Notes under the pieces: generated by a model
What the model was told of the DNA's origin: nothing
Databases searched by the model: none
The model's input: only the letters and a program-made list of their open reading frames with translations
Assembly: GCA_016194445.1 (NCBI GenBank)
Contig: JACQBP010000016.1
Span: 1 to 49,399, forward strand
Direction: 5' to 3'
Length of the DNA: 49,399 nucleotides
Origin: Candidatus Liptonbacteria bacterium
Lineage (GTDB): Bacteria > Patescibacteriota > Minisyncoccia > UBA6257 > 2-01-FULL-56-20
Shown here: one piece after another, positions 2,778-49,399 of the stretch
How positions within the stretch are numbered: the first letter of the stretch is position 1
Layout of the letters: every line of letters starts with the position of its first letter
Translations under genes and position numbers: made by a program

Positions 2778-2804
2778 AAATTGCAAGATTTTATTTTTTA
2801 AAAT

Positions 2805-3068
2805 ATGTACGAACAATTAGTTTACTGGATATGGTTCGCCATCAATATCGCTCTCCTTGTTTTGCTTTTTGTAGATACCATCAAGTTAGCGATAAAGGGA
2901 ATTCGATTTCTTCCCATATTTGGACTTTTTATTACTATTGTCCTGGGGATTCTAGGTATTTTAAGCATTCCAGGTAATCCTGCTGGGCTTGCCATAGCAT
3001 CTTTGATTTTCTACTGGCCAATCAGGGCCTATGCGATACATTCGAAAAAGAAAAAATTGCAAAACTAG
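2805..3068 (+). CDS. small integral membrane protein, function unknown
   Basis: 87-aa ORF with three hydrophobic segments, in the same orientation as its neighbours. Confidence 0.5.
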   Translation: MYEQLVYWIWFAINIALLVLLFVDTIKLAIKGIRFLPIFGLFITIVLGILGILSIPGNPAGLAIASLIFYWPIRAYAIHSKKKKLQN

Positions 3069-3085
3069 CTAATCGCCAAATCTTA

Positions 3086-3988
3086 ATGGCTACCCTCTAC
3101 ACCCAAAAATCATCCAACATCCGCAAAACCTTCCTTCTTTTCACGGTTTTCTTTGCCGTCATTATCGGCCTCGGTTTTGTGTTCTCTGAAGCCTACGGCA
3201 ATCCCAGCATCCTTTATATCGCCGTCGTCTTTTCCTGTTTTATGAGTTTCTTAAGCTACTGGCAGTCCGACAAAATTGTTCTCGCTATGTCGAAAGGTGT
3301 GCCCGTAGATCGGAGCTCGAATCGCGAACTCTACAGTCTCGTTGAAAATCTTTCGATTAGCGCTGGCCTCCCCGCGCCCAAAATTTATCTGACCCCCGAA
3401 CTGACTCCGAACGCCTTTGCGACCGGCCGCGACCCCAACCACGCGGTCATCTGCGTCACAAGAGGCCTCCTCCAAAAACTCAACAAAACCGAACTCGAAG
3501 GCGTTTTAGCTCACGAACTCTCCCATATCGGCAACCGCGATATGCTAGTGAACACCGTTGCCGTTGTCTTGGTTGGTTTCATCTCTATTTTGGCCAACTT
3601 TTTTATGCGCTCGATGTTTTTTGGCGGCGGCCGCAGCCGTGATAATGAAAATAGCGGCGCCGGCATTTTCATGATCATCGGCATTGTTCTCTCCATTCTC
3701 GCTCCCATCGTGGCGAGCTTGATGCAACTGGCCATCTCCCGCCGCCGAGAATTTCTGGCTGACACCTCTGGCGCTCTTTTAACCCGCTATCCCGAAGGCC
3801 TCGCGAGCGCGCTTGAAAAAATCTCCCGTGACACCACCCCGATGCAGTTTGCCCAACCCGCCACCTCCCACCTCTGGCTCGCCGACCCGATGAAAAACCA
3901 AAAACAAGTCTCATTTTTTGCCAAGCTTTTTATGACCCACCCGCCCATCGAAGAACGCATCAAAATCTTGCGTGGAATGAGTATTTAA
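3086..3988 (+). CDS. htpX: M48-family zinc metalloprotease HtpX
   Basis: 300 aa with the HELSHIGNRD (HExxH) motif, flanking TM helices and a conserved C-terminal THPPIEERI. Confidence 0.9.
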   Translation: MATLYTQKSSNIRKTFLLFTVFFAVIIGLGFVFSEAYGNPSILYIAVVFSCFMSFLSYWQSDKIVLAMSKGVPVDRSSNRELYSLVENLSISAGLPAPKIYLTPELTPNAFATGRDPNHAVICVTRGLLQKLNKTELEGVLAHELSHIGNRDMLVNTVAVVLVGFISILANFFMRSMFFGGGRSRDNENSGAGIFMIIGIVLSILAPIVASLMQLAISRRREFLADTSGALLTRYPEGLASALEKISRDTTPMQFAQPATSHLWLADPMKNQKQVSFFAKLFMTHPPIEERIKILRGMSI

Positions 3989-20530: not shown

Positions 20531-21994
20531 CTTGAAATTGTCGCTTCCTTTCAGGAAGCCCAAACTGCCAAAGAACCTGGGCGAATGAAATTCGCAGAAA
20601 TGTTGTCATTTTTGGAATCAGGAAAAGCAGATGGGATTTTAAGTTGGAATCCGGATCGTCTCGCCCGAAATTCCATAGACGGAGGACAAATTATTTATCT
20701 GCTGGACACAGGAAAGATTAAAGATTTAAAGTTCCCGACTCACTGGTTTGAAAATACACCACAAGGAAAATTTATACTGAACATTGCCTTTGGGCAAAGC
20801 AAATATTACGTGGATAATCTTTCAGAAAATATCAAACGTGGACATAGAGCAAAACTTCGTAAAGGAATATGGCCTAGCTTTGCCCCACTTGGTTATGTGA
20901 ATAATCACAAAACACGAGATGTTGATCTTGATACTGAAAAAGCTCCGCTAGTCCGCAAAGGTTTTGAGTTATACGCAACGGGTAAATATACGCTCAAACA
21001 AATTGCTAAAGCGTTGAAAGACCTCGGACTGCGGAGCTACAAAGGCAATGTTCTGGCAGTTTCCTGTGTCCAGAGAATACTGAAAAGCACTTTCTACTAT
21101 GGAATTTTTGAATTCAAAGGCGAGACGTATCAGGGTTCGCACGAGCCATTAATTTCAAAGAAACTTTTTGACATATGCCAAGAGGTGATGAAATCTCGCG
21201 GACATATCAAAACACGCAAGGCAGAGAAAACTTCTCCATTTCGCGGACTTTTTACCTGCGGAGAGTGTAAATGTGCGATAACTGCCGAATTACAAAAAGG
21301 ACATAACTATTATCGTTGTACCAAGAAACGCGGAATGTGCTCACAAAAATATGTCCGCGAAGAAGTGTTGACCGAACAAGTGAAAAGTTTTCTTCAAAAA
21401 GTTTCTTTGCCGAGCCAAGACACCGAAAAAGTTTTGCGCGAACTGGATAAGGACGAACAGAAAGCAAGAGAGGACAGCAAGATGTTCGTGAAAAATCTTA
21501 AGAATGAGTTAGCTGATGTTGAGATGAAGTTAGACAAACTGCTTTCTGCTTTTCTTGATGAAGTAATTACGTCCGAAGAATATGCCGCGCAAAAACAAAA
21601 AATGCTCGACCAAAGAGTAGAGCTAAAAGAGAAAATCAGAGAAATTGAAAACAAAGGCGTGTCTTGGCTCGAACCGGCTCGTGCGTGGGTTAAATCCTTG
21701 AATCAAGCGGAGAAATTGCTGGAGAGTGGGGATAAATCGGAAATGACAACATTTCTAAAACAAATCGGCTCGAACCATATTTTGATTGATAAATCCTTTT
21801 CCTTTTCGCCAAAAAAGCCCTTTCAAATCCTATGCGAGCGGCGCGGAACGCGCCGCGAGGTGGCTTCTGCAAACTTGCATTTTCCCAACTGGCGGAGGCG
21901 GAAGGATTCGAACCTTCGAGGGGATTTCTCCCCTAACATCTTAGCAGGATGCTGCCTTCAGCCGCTCGGCCACGCCTCCAAATTTACAAACTAA
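20531..21994 (+). pseudogene. large serine recombinase, N-terminally truncated (catalytic Ser region missing)
   Basis: Homologous to the 45305 copy from ...LEIVASFQEAQTAKEPGRMKFAEML onward, with the recombinase domain, a CxxC..C zinc ribbon and a coiled coil. The YARKST catalytic segment is absent. The ORF tail runs antisense through tRNA-Ser. Confidence 0.8.
21890..21979 (-). tRNA. tRNA-Ser (anticodon GCU), CCA encoded
   Basis: Hand-folded reverse complement. Acceptor GGAGGCG, anticodon loop CTGCTAA, 18-nt variable arm, T-arm GAAGG-TTCGAAT-CCTTC. 90 nt. Confidence 0.9.
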
Positions 21995-40039: not shown

Positions 40040-41449
40040 TTATAATCCCCTTCGTATTACCTTCGGTCCCGCAGAAGTGTCTCTAACCTCATACCCCTTT
40101 TTAATGATCTCTTGACGAACACGATCAGATTCCTCCCACTTATTGTCTTCTCTTAAATCTTCTCGTTTTTGAACAAGCACCCTAATTTCTTCTGGAATTT
40201 TCTCGGAGAGGAGATATCCAAGATTCAATCGTAAAACTTTATCAAACTCAAGAATTGCCGCTTTCTTCTGGGGGGTGAGAGGAGAATCAGCAATTTTCCA
40301 TAACAACGCAATCGCTTGAGGAGTGTTAAAATCATTGTTTATACAACGCTTGAATTCCTGAAGTTCTTGCTTGTCTGGAGAAACTTTTTTATTTCCAAGG
40401 ATAGAAACTTTTTCCCGAAGCGAAAGCAGTGCTTTCTGGGCTCCCCGCAAGCTAGGCCATGTAAAATTAAGGCCTGCGCGATAGTGAGAGGTTAGAACTA
40501 GATAGCGGAAAGCGAGTGGGTCATACCCACGATCCACGATGTCTTGTAAAGTAACAAAGTTATGCTCACTTTTTGCCATCTTTTTTCCATTGACCGTTAA
40601 AAAGGCTACATGCATCCAGTAACGCACGAATTGTTTTCCCGTAGCCGCTTCTGATTGCGCTATTTCGTTGGTATGATGAACAGGAATGTGATCAATGCCG
40701 CCAGTGTGAATATCAATTGTCTCTCCCAAATATTTCATGGCCATGGCACTGCACTCAATGTGCCAGCCAGGGAATCCAATTCCCCAAGGACTTTGCCACT
40801 CCATCTGTCTCTTTCTGTCTTTAGGAGAGAATTTCCAGAGCGCAAAATCAGTTATTTTATTTTTTTCTCCGATATCTACTCGAGCACCCGGCTTAATGCC
40901 TGCAACACCTAATCGCGCGAGATGCCCATAGTTGGATAACCGAGAAGTGTCAAAGTAAACACCATCAGAAGTCAGATAAGTATATCCAGCTTTCTCGAGC
41001 CGTTGAATCAAAGTAATTTGTTCACTGATATGGTCTGTAGCTTTGCTCCAAACAGAAGGGGGTTTAATGTTGAGAGCAAGGAGATTTTGCTTGAAAATCC
41101 CGGTGTATAATTCGGCAATTTCAAATGCAGAACGTTTCTGTTTCCGGGCACTCAACTCCATTTTGTCTTCACCGGAATCAGCATCAGATGTTAAATGGCC
41201 AACATCTGTTATATTGATCACCTGTTTGACTTTATACCCATTAAACTCAAGTGTGTTGCGAAGGACATCCGCAACAATGTAGGCGCGAAGATTCCCGATG
41301 TGCGGATAGTCATACACCGTAGGCCCGCAGGTGTACATTTTAACCCTGCCAGGCTTAAGCGGAACAAATAGCCGCTCCTTTCTCTCATATGTATCAAAGA
41401 GATAAATTGAGCCCGATACGCTCTTTCTTTTTTTCTGATTTATGTTCAT
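40040..41449 (-). CDS. cysS: cysteinyl-tRNA synthetase
   Basis: 469 aa with HIGN, KMAKS, the zinc ligands CGPTVYD / WHIECS / HHTNEIAQSEA, and the DALR-2 region. Confidence 0.9.
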   Translation of the reverse strand: MNINQKKRKSVSGSIYLFDTYERKERLFVPLKPGRVKMYTCGPTVYDYPHIGNLRAYIVADVLRNTLEFNGYKVKQVINITDVGHLTSDADSGEDKMELSARKQKRSAFEIAELYTGIFKQNLLALNIKPPSVWSKATDHISEQITLIQRLEKAGYTYLTSDGVYFDTSRLSNYGHLARLGVAGIKPGARVDIGEKNKITDFALWKFSPKDRKRQMEWQSPWGIGFPGWHIECSAMAMKYLGETIDIHTGGIDHIPVHHTNEIAQSEAATGKQFVRYWMHVAFLTVNGKKMAKSEHNFVTLQDIVDRGYDPLAFRYLVLTSHYRAGLNFTWPSLRGAQKALLSLREKVSILGNKKVSPDKQELQEFKRCINNDFNTPQAIALLWKIADSPLTPQKKAAILEFDKVLRLNLGYLLSEKIPEEIRVLVQKREDLREDNKWEESDRVRQEIIKKGYEVRDTSAGPKVIRRGL

Positions 41450-41454
41450 AAATA

Positions 41455-42252
41455 TTATTCAATTATTTCTCTTCTTTTGAATTTACAAAAAAACATAATC
41501 ATAAACCTATTTTTGGGCAATAAAATATCAATAATTCTCCCTATTGTTTTAATCATCCAGCGAGGAGATTCTAGCGGCAGAGGACTGCCAAAATACTCTA
41601 TTTTGAGCCATTCAATATTCTTCCCACTTCCTTCGGCGGCATTTATCACTAAATCGGCTAAGATTCTATTTTTGTAAAAATGTTCCGTTCCCAATCTATA
41701 ACCCGATATAGGGCCAGGGAAAAATTTTAACACCCACGCTTTAATAGTGGGTCCAGAATAGAAATTCGGTACCCCAAAAGTGATGATTCCATCGGATTTT
41801 GTAACTCGCATCATTTCTTCTAGAATCATTTTGATAGCTGAAGGCTTATAGTGCTCAATGACACCTGTATTCCATACAAAATCAAAAGTTTCTTTTTGAA
41901 ACGGTATTTCGAATATATTACCAATCACAAATTTTACATCCTTAACTTTGAATTTTTGGGCTATATGTTTTGCATATTCTAGGGCTGCCGGAGATATATC
42001 AAGTAATGTTCTATCAATATTACCGCGAAGAAGAATTGAAGATCTTCCTGAACCGCTTCCTGCCTCCAGTAAACTGGAATACTTGTACTTGTTAAATAAA
42101 GATTCCACAAAACTGGTAATTTTTTTATAGTAATCTTCATCCCAAAAGGACGAAAAATTACTTCGGCTTTTATTCCTTTTGTTAAGCTTATTCTCAAATA
42201 TATTATTCCAAGAATCTCTTTCGTGCTCTATTGTCTTCTGCAAATCTTCCAT
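41455..42252 (-). CDS. class I SAM-dependent methyltransferase
   Basis: Motif I LLEAGSGSGRSS and post-I/II motifs (DFVWNTGVIEH). Confidence 0.8.
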   Translation of the reverse strand: MEDLQKTIEHERDSWNNIFENKLNKRNKSRSNFSSFWDEDYYKKITSFVESLFNKYKYSSLLEAGSGSGRSSILLRGNIDRTLLDISPAALEYAKHIAQKFKVKDVKFVIGNIFEIPFQKETFDFVWNTGVIEHYKPSAIKMILEEMMRVTKSDGIITFGVPNFYSGPTIKAWVLKFFPGPISGYRLGTEHFYKNRILADLVINAAEGSGKNIEWLKIEYFGSPLPLESPRWMIKTIGRIIDILLPKNRFMIMFFCKFKRREIIE

Positions 42253-42261
42253 ACTATTGGG

Positions 42262-43143
42262 TCAGGTTAAACGATTATTGATTATTTTTAATCTCTCTTG
42301 AAAACTCTTAAATTTTTCTGGTTTGTCAGACAAAAGACGCTCAAATAAATAAATTATTTTTCTTACACTTGCATCATCTTTCAATTCCTTATTCAGATTA
42401 GCAGGAATAACAAATTTTTTCAGTTCCGGGAAAACCGCTTCCAAGAGTCCGACTTTTTGAAGTTTTTTAATAAATAAATAGCGGTTGCTAGATTTAATGA
42501 TCGCTTGAAGTATATTAAAGTAGGCATGCTCCCGAGCGTAAACACCGTGAAAGTAATCCTTGTGCCTCCAAGATTTTATCTTTTTTGACAAGGCTTTTAA
42601 AAATGAAAAAAGATTTTTATCTTTACAAAAATCGACATTGAAACGAGTGCAAAGATTAACCAATCTCGATGCTAAAATAAAAGGATTCTCTCCGTTAATC
42701 GAAACGATCGGCGCTAATTTTCTCTTTCTTAAGGATTCAATAGAATCATATGGATCGTATATCCTGCCAGATGGAAAATGCCAAAATATACTTTCCCAAT
42801 TAAAATGACCTAAATAATTAATATCTTTAACAATCCCTATGTCATAACGAATCGATTTTTTAGAAACTATGATTTGGAATACTTTGTTAAACTTTAAGTA
42901 ATAGGAACGACTTTTAATGATGGAGAATCTCCGGGACTTTAAAATTTTCAGAACAGACCTAAATTTTTTTATATCGCCGATGATAGCCAAATCGTAATCA
43001 TTAACCTCAAAATTAACACCTAAATCTTCAGCAATTTCTTTGTAGGTAATACTGCCGCCAAGCCAAAAATCATTTAAGCCGCTTTCTTTTGCTATGCGTT
43101 GGAGAATAAAGAACTGCTTTCTATTGACATGGGTAATACTCAT
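42262..43143 (-). CDS. hypothetical protein (weak GGS...DYD nucleotidyltransferase-like motif)
   Basis: 293 aa. WLGGSITYKEI...NDYDLAIIGD resembles a Pol-beta/CCA-enzyme head motif, but the spacing is longer than the canonical one. Confidence 0.6.
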   Translation of the reverse strand: MSITHVNRKQFFILQRIAKESGLNDFWLGGSITYKEIAEDLGVNFEVNDYDLAIIGDIKKFRSVLKILKSRRFSIIKSRSYYLKFNKVFQIIVSKKSIRYDIGIVKDINYLGHFNWESIFWHFPSGRIYDPYDSIESLRKRKLAPIVSINGENPFILASRLVNLCTRFNVDFCKDKNLFSFLKALSKKIKSWRHKDYFHGVYAREHAYFNILQAIIKSSNRYLFIKKLQKVGLLEAVFPELKKFVIPANLNKELKDDASVRKIIYLFERLLSDKPEKFKSFQERLKIINNRLT

Positions 43144-44808
43144 TTATTTTTAAGAGTGCGGAAACTAATCAGCTGGCTTTTAAGTTTATCCACTTCATTT
43201 TTGACATGCTCGGAATTCGCGTGAGGTGAAACAAGACAATATTTTAATGCAGATACAGCTTTGCCAGATTTTGTTTTGTAAAAACCTTTCGAGAACGAAC
43301 AGCCCAATCGACTGATATCTCCGCTATTACTTTTGAGACAAAATTCATAAAACGACTTTACTTCTTCATTAAGATGGTCCAGTAATTTATCATCTCCACT
43401 AACAGATGACAGAAACTCTTTCCAATTAATTCTTTTATTACCGGGAGATAGTAAAACCATAGTGTTAAATCCCAATGCGTGAGGATTCCCTACTAAAAAA
43501 TAATCCCCCTCAGAAATTAAATCTCTAAATACTTTTGTACAGAAAATTTGATTTGCAAGTAATCGCCTAAAGCCATTCTTTCCCATTACTAATAGTGAGC
43601 CTACGGCCGAAAGAGCTTTACCTGCGGAGCGAGATGTTTCCAAAGTGATATCTGAGGGATCTTCCAAAGACCAATCGTTGCCGAGATGGTGTGTATCAAT
43701 GCCTCTTTCCTTTTTAGAGAGCAGGAGCAGATCATTACTATTGTTTGAAACAAAAAGACCACACGGTGTTGGACAACCGCCCAATCCCTTGTGAAAATCT
43801 ACTCCCCACGAATCGGCCTTTCTTACTTGATATTTTCTTTTGAACTGTTCCTTGATGATGGGTAATATTTCCGCTGGAATTTTTAGAGGATTTAATTCAA
43901 AGTCGTATCCATTAAACACCAGCCAAATCCATCCGATGACAGAATCAACGTGAATGTGTGGAGAAAAAGAAAGGTTGTACTCTTTTATAAGCCTATCTCT
44001 TAAATCTATAAACGCGCCAATATCATCAATTGCAAAATCATAGAATGGGCCCCCGTTTATTTGAAATCCAGCAATGACTCCGCCCTTTTCAATTATAGAT
44101 CTTGTTTTTATCTCTGCGTCTTCAATGATGGACCTGCTTTCTTCGTCTGCTTTGATTTGCACTAAACGGTCGATGCCTATGCCAAGCCAATCTCCAACCG
44201 TTTTATGAGAGAAGTGGGCGTTGGCAGTAATCATGACGTGCAGGTTAGAAGGAGCGCCAATCTTTCCTGCGTTAGGGACAGCATTATTGATAGCAAGTTT
44301 CATGGCATACATGTTCGAAGCTGTTCCCCCAAAAGAGAATAGCGCCCTAACTTTGTCTTTGGGCAAATCTATGAGATCAGCCATCATTTCGGAGATAACT
44401 TTCTCCGCAAGCAAGCAAGCAATTACCCGCAAAGTCGGTACTTATGTTATGGATATTGATTTCTTGGCCCAAACTTAAAAGAGCCTGTGCAACTGCATTA
44501 ACTGGAGCACAGATGTTATATTGCAATTCTGGACTACGCCAATTTGGTGCTCCAGGAAGGAATTTTTTAATCGTTTCGGATATTACGTCGTTAGGATGCA
44601 TTCCATCGTCTGGAATTTTATTCGGAATTTTAGTATCGTTATCTGGTGATTTAGGAATCCACGGCTCACTTGAATTCTTGAAAACTTTCCGCAATGTTTG
44701 AAGACCGAAATTAAAAAGCTTCGAGGATGTTTTAGATCCAATCAAAGGCGGGAACAAGAAATCTATTTGTCTTTTATGGGCAGAGTTCCATAAGTATTTC
44801 TTTTTCAT
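43140..44808 (-). pseudogene. group II PLP-dependent amino-acid decarboxylase, reading frame broken inside a (GCAA)4 tract
   Basis: N-terminal 143 aa lie in the 44808 frame and the remaining 430 aa in the 44432 frame. Motifs are FGGTASNMYAM, HIHVDSVIGW and VDFHKGLG (the PLP lysine). Removing one 4-nt unit gives ...FAGNCLLAEKVISEMMADL. Confidence 0.8.
44407..44422. repeat. tetranucleotide repeat (GCAA)4, which is (TTGC)4 on the coding strand
   Basis: Read directly: cGCAAGCAAGCAAGCAAtt. Confidence 0.9.
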
Positions 44809-44904
44809 ATTCTGGTTCGAAAAATTTTTCGTCTGAAGCGTCTATGATTTTAGGATACATCAAAAACGATGAAAACTCAATATTAAAATTAAGGACGGTT
44901 CATA

Positions 44905-45007
44905 CACCTACCAACTTTTGTCTAATCGCACGAACAAAAATAGAGGCGGCTTCCTTTCGTCAAGAATTTTTGATAAAGTAAGTTCGAGCGCGGTCGTAAA
45001 TATACTC
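44905..45007. repeat. right arm of the inverted repeat bracketing the AT-rich operon (empty-site version)
   Basis: CACCTACCAACTTTTGTCTAATCGC... is the reverse complement of 40005-40029, and the homology continues to 45007. Confidence 0.85.
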
Positions 45008-45011
45008 CAAA

Positions 45012-45142
45012 ATTAGACTTTCCGATTTTTGACCGACGAATTCGTGGGCGGCACAAAGTGCCGCCCGTTGGTTTTCTGGCGTAGAATCAGAGCCGCTTGG
45101 CGCGCGGAAGCGCGCCTCGCGGTTGGCCAAGACGAGGTTCGA
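45012..45142. repeat. left 131-bp inverted repeat with two GC hairpins (45046-45066, 45099-45116)
   Basis: GGGCGGCAC-AAA-GTGCCGCCC and GGCGCGC-GGAA-GCGCGCC. Confidence 0.85.
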
Positions 45143-45166
45143 AATCCCTTGCGGTTTCGTATTTGT

Positions 45167-45196
45167 TTGCCCAACAGAAAGAATTTTTGCTATAAT
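45167..45196 (+). promoter_or_regulatory. candidate promoter of the recombinase gene
   Basis: TTGCCC, an 18-nt spacer, then TGcTATAAT. Confidence 0.45.
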
Positions 45197-45304
45197 GACA
45201 ATGTAACCAATCCCGCAAAGTTGTCTTTTTTGATGGCCGTCTCAGTCAGTTCAAGGCAACTTGGATTGGTTACAACCGGGGCGGCCTTTAAAGTTTTCAA
45301 ATTT

Positions 45305-46367
45305 ATGGATAATCTATCGCAAAAATTCTTTTTGTATGCCCGCAAGTCCACTGATGTGGAAGATAAGCAGGTGCGTTCTATTGAAGACCAAATTACAGAA
45401 TTGCGCGCCTTTGCCAAACAAGAAAATCTCAACATTATTGATGAGTTGATGGAGAAACAATCAGCCAAAATTCCGGGCCGTCCCATTTTCAACGATATGC
45501 TCAATCGGATAGAGAGTGGCGAAGCAAACGGAATTTTGGCCTGGCATCCTGATAGATTAGCGCGCAATTCTGTGGACGGTGGACAAATAATTTATCTTTT
45601 GGATTGCGGGCATTTGGCGATGTTGAAATTTCCCACATTTTGGATGGAAAATACCTCACAAGGAAAATTTATGCTCAACATCGCCTTTGGGCAAAGCAAA
45701 TACTACGTGGATTCTCTTTCTGAAAATACCAAAAGAGGGTTGCGCCAAAAAGTAAAACGAGGCGAATATCCAAGCCTTGCGCCTGTTGGATATATCAACG
45801 ACTCGCGCAATAAATCTGTTGTCGTGGATAAAAAGCAAGCTCCGGTGGTTCGCAAGGCTTTTGAGCTATACGCGCAAGGCGATCAAAGACTGGAAGATAT
45901 TGGAGAATTTTTGGCGCAACACAAATTAGTTTCAAAAAGCGGAAAGAGAATCCACATCTCAAGAGCGACTTTTATCCTCTCCAATCCTTTTTACACCGGA
46001 CTATTTCGCTACACTGGCGAAATCTACGAAGGCAAGCACGAGCCAATCTGCTTTTGTTCAAACAAACCAAGAAAGAATCAAAGTCATTGCCACTAAACTC
46101 CAGCGACTTCTTGATGGCTACTTGGAACAGGATATTGACCGAGAAATCTACCGCACCGAAAAAGCAAAACTCCTTTCCGAAAAGAAGTCGCTGGAGGAGC
46201 AAATGACCAATCTTGAACAAAAGCAGAATGGTTGGCTCGAACCTGCGTCTAGCCAACCGCGAGGCGCGCCTCTGCGCGCCGAGCGGAGAGGATTTCCCCC
46301 CCACAAAACCAATGGGCGGCACGAAGTGCCGCCCACCGATTCGTCGGTCAAAAATCGGAAAGTCTAA
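45305..46367 (+). pseudogene. large serine recombinase with an intact catalytic N-terminus but an internal deletion plus frameshift
   Basis: MDNLSQKFFLYARKSTDVEDKQVRSIEDQ... is the catalytic Ser region. After ..GKHEP (about 46045) the zinc-ribbon region seen in the 20531 copy is missing. The coiled-coil part (..KLQRLLDGYLEQDIDREIY..WLEP) continues in another frame. Confidence 0.75.
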
Positions 46368-46368
46368 T
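46238..46368. repeat. right 131-bp inverted repeat with two GC hairpins (46263-46280, 46314-46334)
   Basis: GGCGCGC-CTCT-GCGCGCC and GGGCGGCAC-GAA-GTGCCGCCC. The stems are identical to the left copy and the loops differ. Confidence 0.85.
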
Positions 46369-46637
46369 CCTGGAGCGGGTTTGTGAAGGACGTTAGAACT
46401 TTTTTCACTTCCCCAGATTCTGCATCCGAGAAGATGGCGACATCACTTCGTCAGGTTTTGGGTAAGCCGGTCATCGCTGATTCACTCTAAGGGTAGCTGA
46501 TTCTTGGCTTGTAACAAGAGGCTGATTCTTGTCGGTTGCGACAGGTTACGCGCCCACAAGAATCAAGACTGGGCCCGGAGGTCGTTCCTTCGGCATGCGG
46601 CATTGCCGGGCTTTCCCCGAGCTTGTTGATCACCGAT

Positions 46638-46787
46638 CTAGTTGAACAGTCTGGTGACAAGGAGAAGAGCAGCGAGTGCAAGCGCAATCACCAATGCCGC
46701 CCACCCGTCTATCTCTACGGTGATCCGGCTTTTCCCGAGGGACTCGGACTTAAGAACTCTGATCGTCGAACTTTTCTTGGGCTTCAT
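46638..46787 (-). CDS. 49-aa ORF with a C-terminal TM helix (not in the ORF track)
   Basis: MKPKKSSTIRVLKSESLGKSRITVEIDGWAALVIALALAALLLVTRLFN. ATG preceded by GAGAGGAAAT. Confidence 0.35.
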   Translation of the reverse strand: MKPKKSSTIRVLKSESLGKSRITVEIDGWAALVIALALAALLLVTRLFN

Positions 46788-47338
46788 ATTTCCTCTCAGT
46801 CATAGCTCTCGCGGAATCTTAGAGCCAAGTGTCAATTTCGAGTGTCCTCACGCAGGCGCCGAAATTCCCGGCTCATTTGAGAACACGTGTTCAAGTCCGA
46901 CGGGAAGATCCGCTCGGCACCATAAACCGAAAAGGGTCAATATGTCAGGTGTCGTGGCGGTGAGAGTTCGCCACCTATGCAGGCCCACGCAACGAAGCTG
47001 AAGATCTCTCAACTTCGAGCAGCTAGCTATACGCTAACCCATCGGCGAATTGTTGTCAAGCCAGGGGTTCTTCTGGGAAGCGAATTCCAAACGAATACGT
47101 AACTCAATCCGAGAGTCGGTATTTCCACAGAGATTTTTAACAGCTAATCTGACAGAGCGAGGTCGGATCTTGTTGGTCCCCTCGGTCGGGGTGTGGTTGT
47201 CCGTTCCGCAAGATTAGAGTGCGGACACTCTGCCTAAGATTCGGCCATCTGAAATGTGGCACGACTTGCGTTGAGGAGCGTGATCTGCGAGGAGACTTAT
47301 GGCCGAGTTGACGAAGAGTTCTCGGCGGAGCGGGCTCG

Positions 47339-47950
47339 TTATCTCTTGAGCTGGCGCGTCCAGCGCAAGCAATACTGCTCTCCGATCATTGGTGCCGTGA
47401 TATTCCACGATATGCGGTTTCTTGCCAGCGCACGAGGTCCTTGGGCGGGATGCTTCGTGGAATTGCCAAAGGACACGTCTCCGTGGAAGTCACTTAACTC
47501 CATATTCGAAGTACCTTGGATCTCTATCAGAGCTGAACGGGTAGTCTTTGTGACGGTAAAGACAATATCCTCTTTGTCCTGGAGATACGAGTCGAGGAGG
47601 TCGCAGTTCCAGTCTCGCGTGAAAAACGCCTCGCATGGTAGAGGGTCTTCAAAGACCGTGGGTATTGCGTACGCCCCGCCACGCTTTTCCTTCCGGCCAA
47701 TATCAACGCGCCCTGGGTGGGATTCCATGCTATCCCAGTCGATCTTCCCGTTGTCGTCGGCGCGAAGATGACGGTCCCATATCTCCCTGATTCCCTCTCG
47801 GTGTGCGACAAGGACGTGGTGCTTCTTGAAAGTAACGCGGTGTCCAGCGTCATCCTGATAGATCACTTCAATCTTGACGTTATGTACAGTGTACTCGCGC
47901 TCATTAAGTTCACTGTCCCACCTGGGACTGGCCAGAACTCCGCCCGACAT
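47339..47950 (-). CDS. hypothetical protein (203 aa)
   Basis: ATG 47950 (MSGGVLASPRW...). The upstream extension of the track ORF reads into the IS terminal repeat and is discarded. Confidence 0.5.
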   Translation of the reverse strand: MSGGVLASPRWDSELNEREYTVHNVKIEVIYQDDAGHRVTFKKHHVLVAHREGIREIWDRHLRADDNGKIDWDSMESHPGRVDIGRKEKRGGAYAIPTVFEDPLPCEAFFTRDWNCDLLDSYLQDKEDIVFTVTKTTRSALIEIQGTSNMELSDFHGDVSFGNSTKHPAQGPRALARNRISWNITAPMIGEQYCLRWTRQLKR

Positions 47951-47974
47951 GATCCGATTGACATTTGACGCTAG

Positions 47975-49289
47975 CAGGTTGCTGAAAAAACCCTTGTGAC
48001 TGCTGTCCCATCCTTCTTTTCGCCGATTTGCATCGGATGGTGGTCTGACCCGGCGGTTTTGCGTCCGTTGATGTGCTGGTTTTCGTTCCGCTGACGCGCC
48101 GTCCACTTCTGATCATCAGGTCGGAATTGGTTGCGGACACAGCTTCGCCATGCGCAGCAGCATGTGGGCGACCACTGTCAGCTTGGTGTGCAAGGTCACG
48201 CGCTCGGCGCCCCGATAACGGGTCCGGCGCAATCCGCCCACCGTCTTCAGCCACCCGAAGCCTTCCTCGATGCGCTTGCGCACCCGCTGGCTGAGCGCAT
48301 AGCCGATACTCCGCGTCGTGCGCCCGTCCAGTCCCGGTGTCCGCCGGCCCTCCACCATCGCGATGTGCGGCGTGATACACTGCAACCACAACGCCTCGAC
48401 AAACGCCTTCGTATGGTATCCCTTGTCCGCCCCGACCGAGCGCGGACAGCCGCGCCGTCGGCGTTGGCACTGGAGCAACGCCAGCGCTGCCTCCCGCTCT
48501 CCCGTTCCCGTGGGGTCATGCACCTTCACATCGACGATCAGGCCGTGACGGTTCTCCATCAAGAGCGATACCCCGTACGACAGCTTCGCTTCCTTGCCCG
48601 CCCCTTTGCGCGCCAGTCGGGCGTCCGGATCCGTCGTGCTGCGGTGTGTCTGGTTGGTGCGCGTCTGCCCATGGAAGTCCACGGTCACGTTCCCCGGATC
48701 GTCGGCGTCAACACCCTGATCGGGCGCGTCGGTGGGACGGAAACTCTTCAACGACGCCCACGCCTCCACCAGTGTCCCGTCCACTGTGAAGTGCTCATCG
48801 GATAACAGCCCCGCCGCCTGCGCCCGCGTCACCACCGCCTGCAAAAACCGCCCCGCCACGTCATGCTGCAACAGACGGTCCCGGTTCTTCGTAAACGTCG
48901 TCGCATCAAACGACCGCTCCTCCAGGCTCATCCCCAAAAACCACCGAAACAGAATGTTGTAGTCCAGCATCTCGCAGAACAGCCGCTCCGAACGGATCGT
49001 GTATAGGGCGATCAGCAGCTGCGCCTTCAACAGCCGCTCCGGCGGAATCGACGGACGCCCCTCCTTCGCGTACATCCGGTCAAACGTCCGGGACAACGAC
49101 CCCAGCGCCTCATCCGCCATCGTCTTGATTCGGCGTAAGGGATGGTCCTGAGGCACCCGCTCCTCCGGCGACAAGTAGCTGAACATGTATCCCTGATTCT
49201 CCTCGCGACCCCGCATCGCACCCTCCTCGGCTGATGGCCATCACGATCACCATACCGCCACCAACCAGCAAGGGTTTTTCAGCAACCTG
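47975..49289 (-). mobile_element. IS5-family insertion sequence (1315 bp)
   Basis: Terminal inverted repeats CAGGTTGCTGAAAAAACCCTTG (47975-47996) and CAAGGGTTTTTCAGCAACCTG (49269-49289). Flanks are CTAG and GTAG. A single DDE transposase ORF. Confidence 0.8.
48116..49216 (-). CDS. IS5-family DDE transposase
   Basis: 366 aa. The N-terminus ...YMFSYLSPEERVPQDHPLRRIK..LFCEMLDYNILFRWFLG is typical of IS4/IS5-superfamily (DUF772) transposases. ATG preceded by GAGGAGGG. Confidence 0.9.
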   Translation of the reverse strand: MRGREENQGYMFSYLSPEERVPQDHPLRRIKTMADEALGSLSRTFDRMYAKEGRPSIPPERLLKAQLLIALYTIRSERLFCEMLDYNILFRWFLGMSLEERSFDATTFTKNRDRLLQHDVAGRFLQAVVTRAQAAGLLSDEHFTVDGTLVEAWASLKSFRPTDAPDQGVDADDPGNVTVDFHGQTRTNQTHRSTTDPDARLARKGAGKEAKLSYGVSLLMENRHGLIVDVKVHDPTGTGEREAALALLQCQRRRRGCPRSVGADKGYHTKAFVEALWLQCITPHIAMVEGRRTPGLDGRTTRSIGYALSQRVRKRIEEGFGWLKTVGGLRRTRYRGAERVTLHTKLTVVAHMLLRMAKLCPQPIPT

Positions 49290-49399
49290 GTAGGCGTTGA
49301 ACACGGAGGGATTCAATCAGCTGAGGCGCTGATGCTGGCACGACATTTCATGTATTCACAAGTGTACCTCCATCCGGTTCGAAAGAGCTACGATTTTCA

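Follow-up and report, generated by a model that had tools for sequence, protein, structure and literature searches.

A Decarboxylase Gene Interrupted by a Tetranucleotide Tract

The stretch of DNA analyzed here ("the window") comprises positions 1-49,399, in nucleotides (nt), of contig JACQBP010000016.1 of an uncultured, groundwater-type Candidatus Liptonbacteria bacterium (assembly GCA_016194445.1). Its minus strand carries four tightly packed genes with spacings of -4, +9, and +5 nt, whose upstream neighbor lies on the opposite strand (Table 1). The first of them encodes a putative pyridoxal phosphate (PLP)-dependent decarboxylase, and its reading frame is broken by a tetranucleotide repeat: the plus strand at 44407-44422 is GCAAGCAAGCAAGCAA, i.e., (GCAA)4, which corresponds to (TTGC)4 on the coding strand and is read there as AAT TGC TTG CTT GCT TGC GGA. 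The tract occupies codons 130-135 of the decarboxylase, as a non-triplet repeat inside the reading frame. Eleven codons past it, frame 0 is closed by a TGA (44377-44379), and the remainder of the decarboxylase runs in the +1 frame down to position 43140. The listing of open reading frames (ORFs) and the three-frame translation allow the frame to change only within 44377-44444, an interval bounded by the frame-0 TGA and a +1-frame TAA (44442-44444), and the tract falls within this interval. The 5' ORF of 143 amino acids (aa) has the C-terminal end ...DFAGNCLLACGESYLRNDG, directly followed by the stop, and the first in-frame ATG of the 3' ORF (44385-44387) opens a 415-aa product called in NCBI. 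Removal of one unit restores a continuous ORF of 554 aa with the junction ...DFAGNCLLAEKVISEMMADL..., and addition of two units gives 558 aa. The initial annotation, which had described a (GCAA)4 tract breaking the first gene of an operon, a stop 11 codons later, a continuation of the gene in the +1 frame, and a decarboxylase of about 555 aa that three units (or two more) would restore, is borne out in every detail by the ORF listing and the translation; the two ORFs across 43140-44808 merit annotation as one frameshifted decarboxylase gene.

Within the 49.4-kb window, this is the only tetranucleotide tract of at least four units, where order-1 and order-3 Markov simulations predict 0.000-0.003 such tracts, and the window holds no homopolymer longer than 8. 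Tetranucleotide tracts of three units also exceed the Markov expectation, with five overlapping calls (four distinct tracts, one of them the decarboxylase's own four-unit tract) against about one expected. Two in-frame three-unit tracts, (AAAT)3 at 42343-42354 and (AATA)3 at 42469-42480, lie inside the second gene of the operon, which encodes a 293-aa protein.

Table 1. Features of the decarboxylase operon, in the direction of transcription (positions in the window).
Feature	Position	Strand	Remarks
Promoter-like site TTTTCA-17-TAAAAT	44847..44875	minus	39 nt upstream of the decarboxylase ATG; consensus match only
5' decarboxylase fragment, 143 aa	44377..44808	minus	133 native residues and a 10-residue out-of-frame tail; premature TGA at 44377-44379
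(TTGC)4 tract, (GCAA)4 on the plus strand	44407..44422	minus	one unit above the in-frame 12-nt state of all relatives
3' decarboxylase part, 430-aa ORF in the +1 frame	43140..44432	minus	all 66 invariant family columns present
Second gene, 293 aa	42262..43143	minus	start overlaps the decarboxylase stop (ATGA); no Pfam match
Third gene, class I S-adenosylmethionine (SAM)-dependent methyltransferase, 265 aa	41455..42252	minus	9 nt after the 293-aa gene
Fourth gene, cysteinyl-tRNA synthetase (cysS), 469 aa	40040..41449	minus	5 nt after the methyltransferase gene

Identity of the Repaired Protein

The protein repaired by removal of one unit matches the Pfam family Pyridoxal_deC (PF00282) with 37.7 bits, against a gathering score of 27, and the match is unbroken over residues 59-271 and spans the junction. 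A search of 5.8 billion protein clusters returned 235 relatives. In an alignment with 27 homologues, the repaired junction is gap-free in every sequence, and the repaired length of 554 aa equals that of the proteins P0001, P0122, and P0126. The junction sits in a conserved segment between the invariant residues G128 and E134; the residues encoded by the tract, N-C-L-L-A-E, belong to a conserved core at codon 130 and not to a tolerant N-terminal leader. All 66 invariant columns are kept in the copy of the window, including D336-F337-H338-K339, which is invariant across 28 sequences, and the codon for the PLP-binding Lys of this DFHK motif lies at 43788-43790. Every NCBIfam equivalog score of the decarboxylase was far under its cut-off, and NCBIfam yielded no equivalog for the decarboxylase, the 293-aa protein, or the methyltransferase. 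To judge by its sequence, the decarboxylase represents a divergent, uncharacterized subfamily of the group II PLP-dependent decarboxylases.

Tract States in Relatives and Databases

A near-identical contig, L003 from the Logan assembly of run SRR12113410 (99.98% nt identity over 4929 nt), carries (TTGC)4 as well, inside an unbroken contig of 5078 nt. It is independent as an assembly, possibly of the same sample as the contig of the window. At 96.6% nt identity, L004 and L005 read TTGT-TTGC-TTGC at the site of the tract; L006-L009 (91-92% nt identity) hold a perfect (TTGC)3, in frame; and L001 and L002 (91.5% nt identity) read TTGC-TTAC-TTGC. More remote are L010 (84% aa identity), with TGT TTG CTT GCG, and L011 (77% aa identity), with TGT TTA TAT GCG, which includes a Leu-to-Tyr change (TAT), and 22 distant relatives have zero or one TTGC unit. 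Apart from L003, no relative exceeds three units; synonymous TGT or TTA interrupts the repeat in L001/L002, L004/L005, and L010; and three as opposed to four units are seen only between lineages that are 3-8% apart. A multiple alignment with five relatives shows the 4-nt unit to be the only indel in the gene of the window. Because of these tract states, the ancestral state is, as read from the sequences, 12 nt in frame, and the repeat appears to have come about by chance from the codons used for N-C-L-L-A; it drifts freely wherever changes are synonymous and is not maintained by selection. The initial annotation had proposed to compare tract lengths in related genomes, and had named four units throughout, together with further disabling mutations, as the state that would speak against its reading; the comparison found three units in the relatives and no added lesions.

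Exact look-up among ~15 billion proteins retrieved the products of the four-unit state, namely P0121 (143 aa) and P0004/P0124 (430 and 415 aa). The 143-aa product is present in NCBI and Logan, and the 430-aa product in two Logan contigs. The same look-up returned none of the in-frame proteins that three or six units would give in this strain, nor the fragments that would result from two or five units. A scan of JGI metagenomes with a gapped DNA pattern that allows one to eight units between the conserved flanks found only the already known contig from The Cedars.

These records bear on the possibility that the fourth unit is a sequencing or assembly artefact, or the consensus of a mixed population, in a genome that really has three units. 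The contig does stem from an assembled metagenome, its G+C content departs strongly at the 3' end (46.4-49.4 kb), so that the quality of the assembly is somewhat in doubt, and other frameshifts found in relatives (see below) sit in homopolymers or low-coverage contigs. However, the clean insertion of one 4-nt unit is atypical of short-read error, a different assembler (Logan, run SRR12113410) arrived at the same four units in a contig that is unbroken through the site, and the 430-aa product is carried by two Logan contigs. An artefact is, therefore, very unlikely.

Age of the Frameshift and Possible Expression of the Broken Gene

The age of the lesion was approached through substitutions on the branch leading to the window since its split from the L004/L005 lineage, polarized with two outgroups. 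This branch has 19 synonymous and 7 non-synonymous changes, and the intact sister lineage has 12 and 10, respectively. Neutral evolution would make ~78% of the changes non-synonymous, and the probability of at most 7 out of 26 is 3e-8; at most ~7% of the branch of the window can have evolved neutrally. Throughout the clade, the pairwise ratio of non-synonymous to synonymous substitution rates (dN/dS) is 0.12-0.14. An old pseudogene is ruled out by the synonymous and non-synonymous counts and by the retention of all invariant residues: the frameshift is recent, or reversible, or bypassed.

A bypass would mean that the gene is still expressed, either by programmed +1 frameshifting within CUU-GCU-UGC or as a two-piece enzyme in which the 143-aa and 415-aa fragments assemble. 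The part beyond the tract is fully intact in its +1 frame, and the branch bears the mark of purifying selection. Moreover, ATGATGGCTGA overlaps with the stop of the 143-aa fragment, an arrangement that would permit termination-reinitiation, with a restart at AUG-AUG 4-9 nt upstream of the UGA (first AUG at 44385-44387). However, the frameshift is absent from every orthologue (27 of 27 aligned in one frame), and programmed sites are normally conserved. The putative shift site comprises neither a stop nor a rare codon and has no Shine-Dalgarno-like stimulator at the right spacing; a GGAG occurs past the tract, 15 nt ahead of the ATG. The break also falls inside the conserved segment between G128 and E134, and an Rfam search of 43000-49399 gave no hits, and thus no known frameshift stimulator or riboswitch. 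Continued expression by either route is considered highly improbable.

Recurrent Lesions in the Same Gene

The decarboxylase gene is independently damaged in four other lineages. In L005 (BBPF01005447.1, positions 899-960), which belongs to the assembly GCA_002581705.1 from The Cedars (GPS1 2011), AAC GGG GGC CCA has become AAC GGG GGG CCC A, a change from G5 to G6 at codon ~250. L004 (run SRR8194967), which differs from L005 by only one other base, is intact; the difference between the two is a genuine ON/OFF polymorphism or else a sequencing error in a homopolymer. L093 and L094 share a change from A7 to A6 at codon ~72, and in L095, 2 nt are deleted at codon ~107; the L095 contig has 3.5x coverage and also lacks the 293-aa gene. 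In addition, the decarboxylase (2781-3722) of L017, a metagenome-assembled genome (MAG) of the Nanoarchaeia, is truncated at its 5' end, so that only residues ~254 to the end remain, next to intact genes for the 293-aa protein and cysS.

In the same loci, no frame-disrupting lesion was found in the 293-aa, methyltransferase, and cysS genes wherever these are covered. With weights for gene length and lineage number, all four frameshifts would land in the decarboxylase with a probability of ~0.045. A mutational hot spot was considered and rejected as an explanation of this pattern, because the decarboxylase of close relatives has fewer long homopolymers than its neighbors (1.2-2.4 homopolymers of at least 6 per kb, compared to 2.5-6.8 per kb). 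The distribution of lesions modestly suggests a recurrent, recent loss of a conditionally dispensable enzyme. Repeated loss of the decarboxylase next to lesion-free partners would point to it as the dispensable part of the conserved, uncharacterized module of decarboxylase, nucleotidyltransferase-like protein, and cysS found in bacteria of the candidate phyla radiation (CPR) and DPANN archaea.

The Operon and Its Partner Genes

The closest named genomes are CPR MAGs, and the close relative L005 comes from the serpentinizing groundwater of The Cedars. The 293-aa protein encoded next to the decarboxylase yielded an AlphaFold model with a predicted local distance difference test (pLDDT) of 92.9, whose top Foldseek matches in the PDB are class II tRNA nucleotidyltransferases / poly(A) polymerases (3wfo-3wfs, 3aqm; probability 1.0, template modeling (TM) score 0.5-0.6). 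G29-G30-S31 and D49-Y50-D51 are invariant or nearly so, the usual EDxxR motif for nucleobase recognition is replaced by E-N-P...R, and the body and tail domains are absent. According to the model, the protein is a member of the class II CCA-adding / poly(A) polymerase superfamily, with a Pol-beta-like head and a helical neck. Neither Pfam nor NCBIfam has a model for the family, and all 47 relatives found are unnamed or 'hypothetical.'

A scan of species-representative genomes showed that the pair of decarboxylase and 293-aa protein recurs in Patescibacteria/CPR bacteria, DPANN archaea, and one proteobacterial MAG, and in a looser form in actinobacteria. The cysS gene is adjacent to the pair in L012 and L014-L017, a set with bacterial as well as archaeal members, and the block of decarboxylase, 293-aa protein, and cysS shared by CPR bacteria and DPANN archaea has 37-75% protein identity per gene; the methyltransferase is present in some lineages only. 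The shared block suggests either a functional link to tRNA or cysteine, or a transfer of the whole block between domains. In the window, the G+C content of the decarboxylase, nucleotidyltransferase-like, and methyltransferase genes (41000-44000) is 32-39%, compared to 43% in cysS and 42-52% in most of the contig.

Unit Gain or Evolved Switch?

The initial annotation had preferred to read the tract as a contingency locus. In this reading, the TTGC tract is an evolved, hypermutable switch comparable to (CAAT)n in Haemophilus lic1, and turns the decarboxylase, and by coupling also the operon, ON or OFF with high frequency. Several observations agree with it: the non-triplet repeat lies in the 5' quarter of the operon's first gene; a four-unit (OFF) and a three-unit (ON) state both occur within a clade of 92-100% nt identity; the gene has no second lesion and is still under purifying selection; and in relatives, it is also found OFF through other short repeats, with L004 (ON) and L005 (OFF) differing by the G-run and one other base.

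Length, however, sets the tract apart from known switches. PhasomeIt applies a cut-off of at least five units to potentially phase-variable tetranucleotide tracts (PMC5953494). Tracts of 2-4 tetranucleotide units are 'proto-mutable,' with 1e-9 to 1e-7 mutations per division, hypermutability appears above ~9-10 units, and rates of 1e-5 or higher need more than 9-10 units (PMC4235727). The contingency tracts of H. influenzae have five or more units, and mostly 15 or more (PMC4235727). With four units, and no relative with more than three, the tract stays below the cut-off of five and is too short for hypermutability; the published thresholds would assign it 1e-9 to 1e-7 mutations per division. 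The near-identical assemblies, i.e., the window and L003, do not differ in its length, and an ON allele of this strain is absent from both the exact look-up and the JGI scan. Synonymous interruptions in most relatives mean that mutability is not preserved, the tract encodes conserved core residues, and the 49 kb of the genome covered by the window contain no further long simple repeat. The claim of a surface- or modification-related operon finds no support in the partner genes, which encode a nucleotidyltransferase-like protein, a generic SAM methyltransferase, and the housekeeping enzyme CysS: profile and structure searches of the operon's genes gave no indication of a surface structure, and the operon is not related to restriction-modification either. 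The tract lacks most of the features that define contingency loci. An evolved switch of the lic1 type is quite unlikely, and listing the tract as a phase-variation locus would not be justified.

What the evidence favors is the other possibility raised by the initial annotation, a fixed frameshift, to which the exact gain of one unit, the states in the relatives, and L003 all point. The four-unit allele probably goes back to a recent slipped-strand event, in which a coding proto-microsatellite gained one TTGC unit and gave rise to a null allele that dominates this strain, in a gene that is repeatedly lost in the clade and is not under the control of an evolved hypermutable switch. In this scenario, an ancestral (TTGC)3 would have arisen solely through codon choice for Asn-Cys-Leu-Leu-Ala (AAT TGC TTG CTT GCG). 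Slipped-strand mispairing during replication, inferred because the 4-nt insertion matches one repeat unit exactly, would then have duplicated one unit, giving (TTGC)4 and shifting the frame of the 554-aa decarboxylase by +1 at codon ~130; short repeats indeed tend toward unit gain (PMC4235727). Translation would end at 44377-44379, so that the full-length enzyme would not be made and its activity would presumably be lost. The allele would be young and dominant, probably fixed, in this strain, and reversion by loss of one unit might occur, at the low rate expected of a four-unit tract.

Several points weigh against this interpretation. The evidence consists of assemblies and database records, and a minority subpopulation with three units may exist in the strain. 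The match with L003 shows independence of the assembly, not of the sample. The enrichment of frameshifts in the decarboxylase over its neighbors is marginal (P ~0.045); among the other lesions, two affect homopolymers and one is in a 3.5x contig, so that some could be sequencing errors. Finally, a reversible OFF state would account just as well as a very recent loss for the strong purifying selection and for a gene that is otherwise intact.

Such a reversible state would be expected if the decarboxylase were subject to 'soft' ON/OFF switching at multiple sites in CPR/DPANN populations, with fluctuating selection alternately favoring loss and retention of its product and the four-unit allele as a reversible OFF state. 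This is considered unlikely. If true, strong long-term purifying selection (dN/dS ~0.12-0.14) would coexist with frequent young frameshifts at (TTGC)3/4, G5/6, and A7/6, and the block of decarboxylase, tRNA-nucleotidyltransferase-like protein, and cysS would constitute an uncharacterized pathway that carries a conditional cost and may have a link to tRNA or cysteine.

Flanking Elements

Upstream of the operon, imperfect inverted repeats of ~140 nt (45005-45142 and 46237-46375; 82-87% matching) bracket a serine recombinase gene, and a GC-rich hairpin is present in each arm (GGGCGGCAC(A/G)AAGTGCCGCCC). With its Resolvase and Recombinase domains, the recombinase ends at 46096 right after '...YEGKHEPI,' without a zinc-ribbon domain; a leftover coiled-coil ORF follows (46122-46367). 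The element (45005-46375), which may be a decayed mobile or invertible element, starts 197 nt upstream of the decarboxylase start, and contig L003 ends inside its left arm. An invertible promoter supplied by the element was considered and set aside: the promoter-like site of the operon is located outside the repeats, in the stretch that separates the element from the gene, and the recombinase seems to be truncated.

Beyond the element, the G+C content of 46400-49399 is 52-64%, compared to 32-45% in the operon region. This segment is either recently acquired foreign DNA or the end of a chimeric contig, and carries an insertion sequence (IS)-type transposase on the minus strand (48116-49216; DUF772 and DDE_Tnp_1). 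A second large serine recombinase gene (20585-21994) encodes Recombinase and Zn-ribbon domains, with a Resolvase match that does not start before profile position 51. At its 3' end, the gene overlaps an oppositely oriented tRNA-Ser(GCT) gene (21890-21979), and it may mark an element integrated at the tRNA gene.

Comparison With Known Systems

As a protein, the repaired decarboxylase shares the DFHK lysine and the HVDSV aspartate motif with the group II PLP-dependent amino-acid decarboxylases (PF00282). The closest solved structures, all of them distant, are diaminobutyrate (DABA) decarboxylase, GAD65/67, GADL1, and CSAD (2qma, 2okk, 3vp6, 6enz, 6zek). Unlike the known members, the protein is very divergent, and its gene is consistently paired with that of a nucleotidyltransferase-like protein.

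With regard to the frameshift, the prfB type of programmed +1 frameshifting (CUU-UGA) offers a superficial parallel, in that a +1 change is needed here as well and the candidate zone includes a CUU Leu codon. In contrast to prfB, the frameshift is not conserved in orthologues, and there is neither an in-frame stop or hungry codon nor an upstream Shine-Dalgarno stimulator. The lic1/licA locus of H. influenzae, with its (CAAT)n tract, likewise has a tetranucleotide repeat in the 5' part of the operon's first gene, where a change by one unit switches the frame. However, the tract described here has four units (three or fewer in relatives), is neither conserved nor free of synonymous interruptions, encodes conserved residues of the catalytic domain, and shows no within-strain variation in length among assemblies. 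Moreover, its operon has no role in surface decoration, and the organism is of the free-living or episymbiotic CPR type and not a host-adapted pathogen.

The closest likeness is to slippage indels at short, 'proto-mutable' simple sequence repeats, which give rise to frameshift null alleles and young pseudogenes. Here, too, a three-unit tract has undergone an exact duplication of one unit, with no other lesion in the gene, and the tract belongs to the 2-4-unit class, so that nothing essential differs. The decarboxylase gene of the window thereby provides a clean natural example of a coding proto-microsatellite that gained a unit, and the sole unusual aspect, compared to ordinary indels of this kind, is that the same gene has been struck independently in several related lineages.

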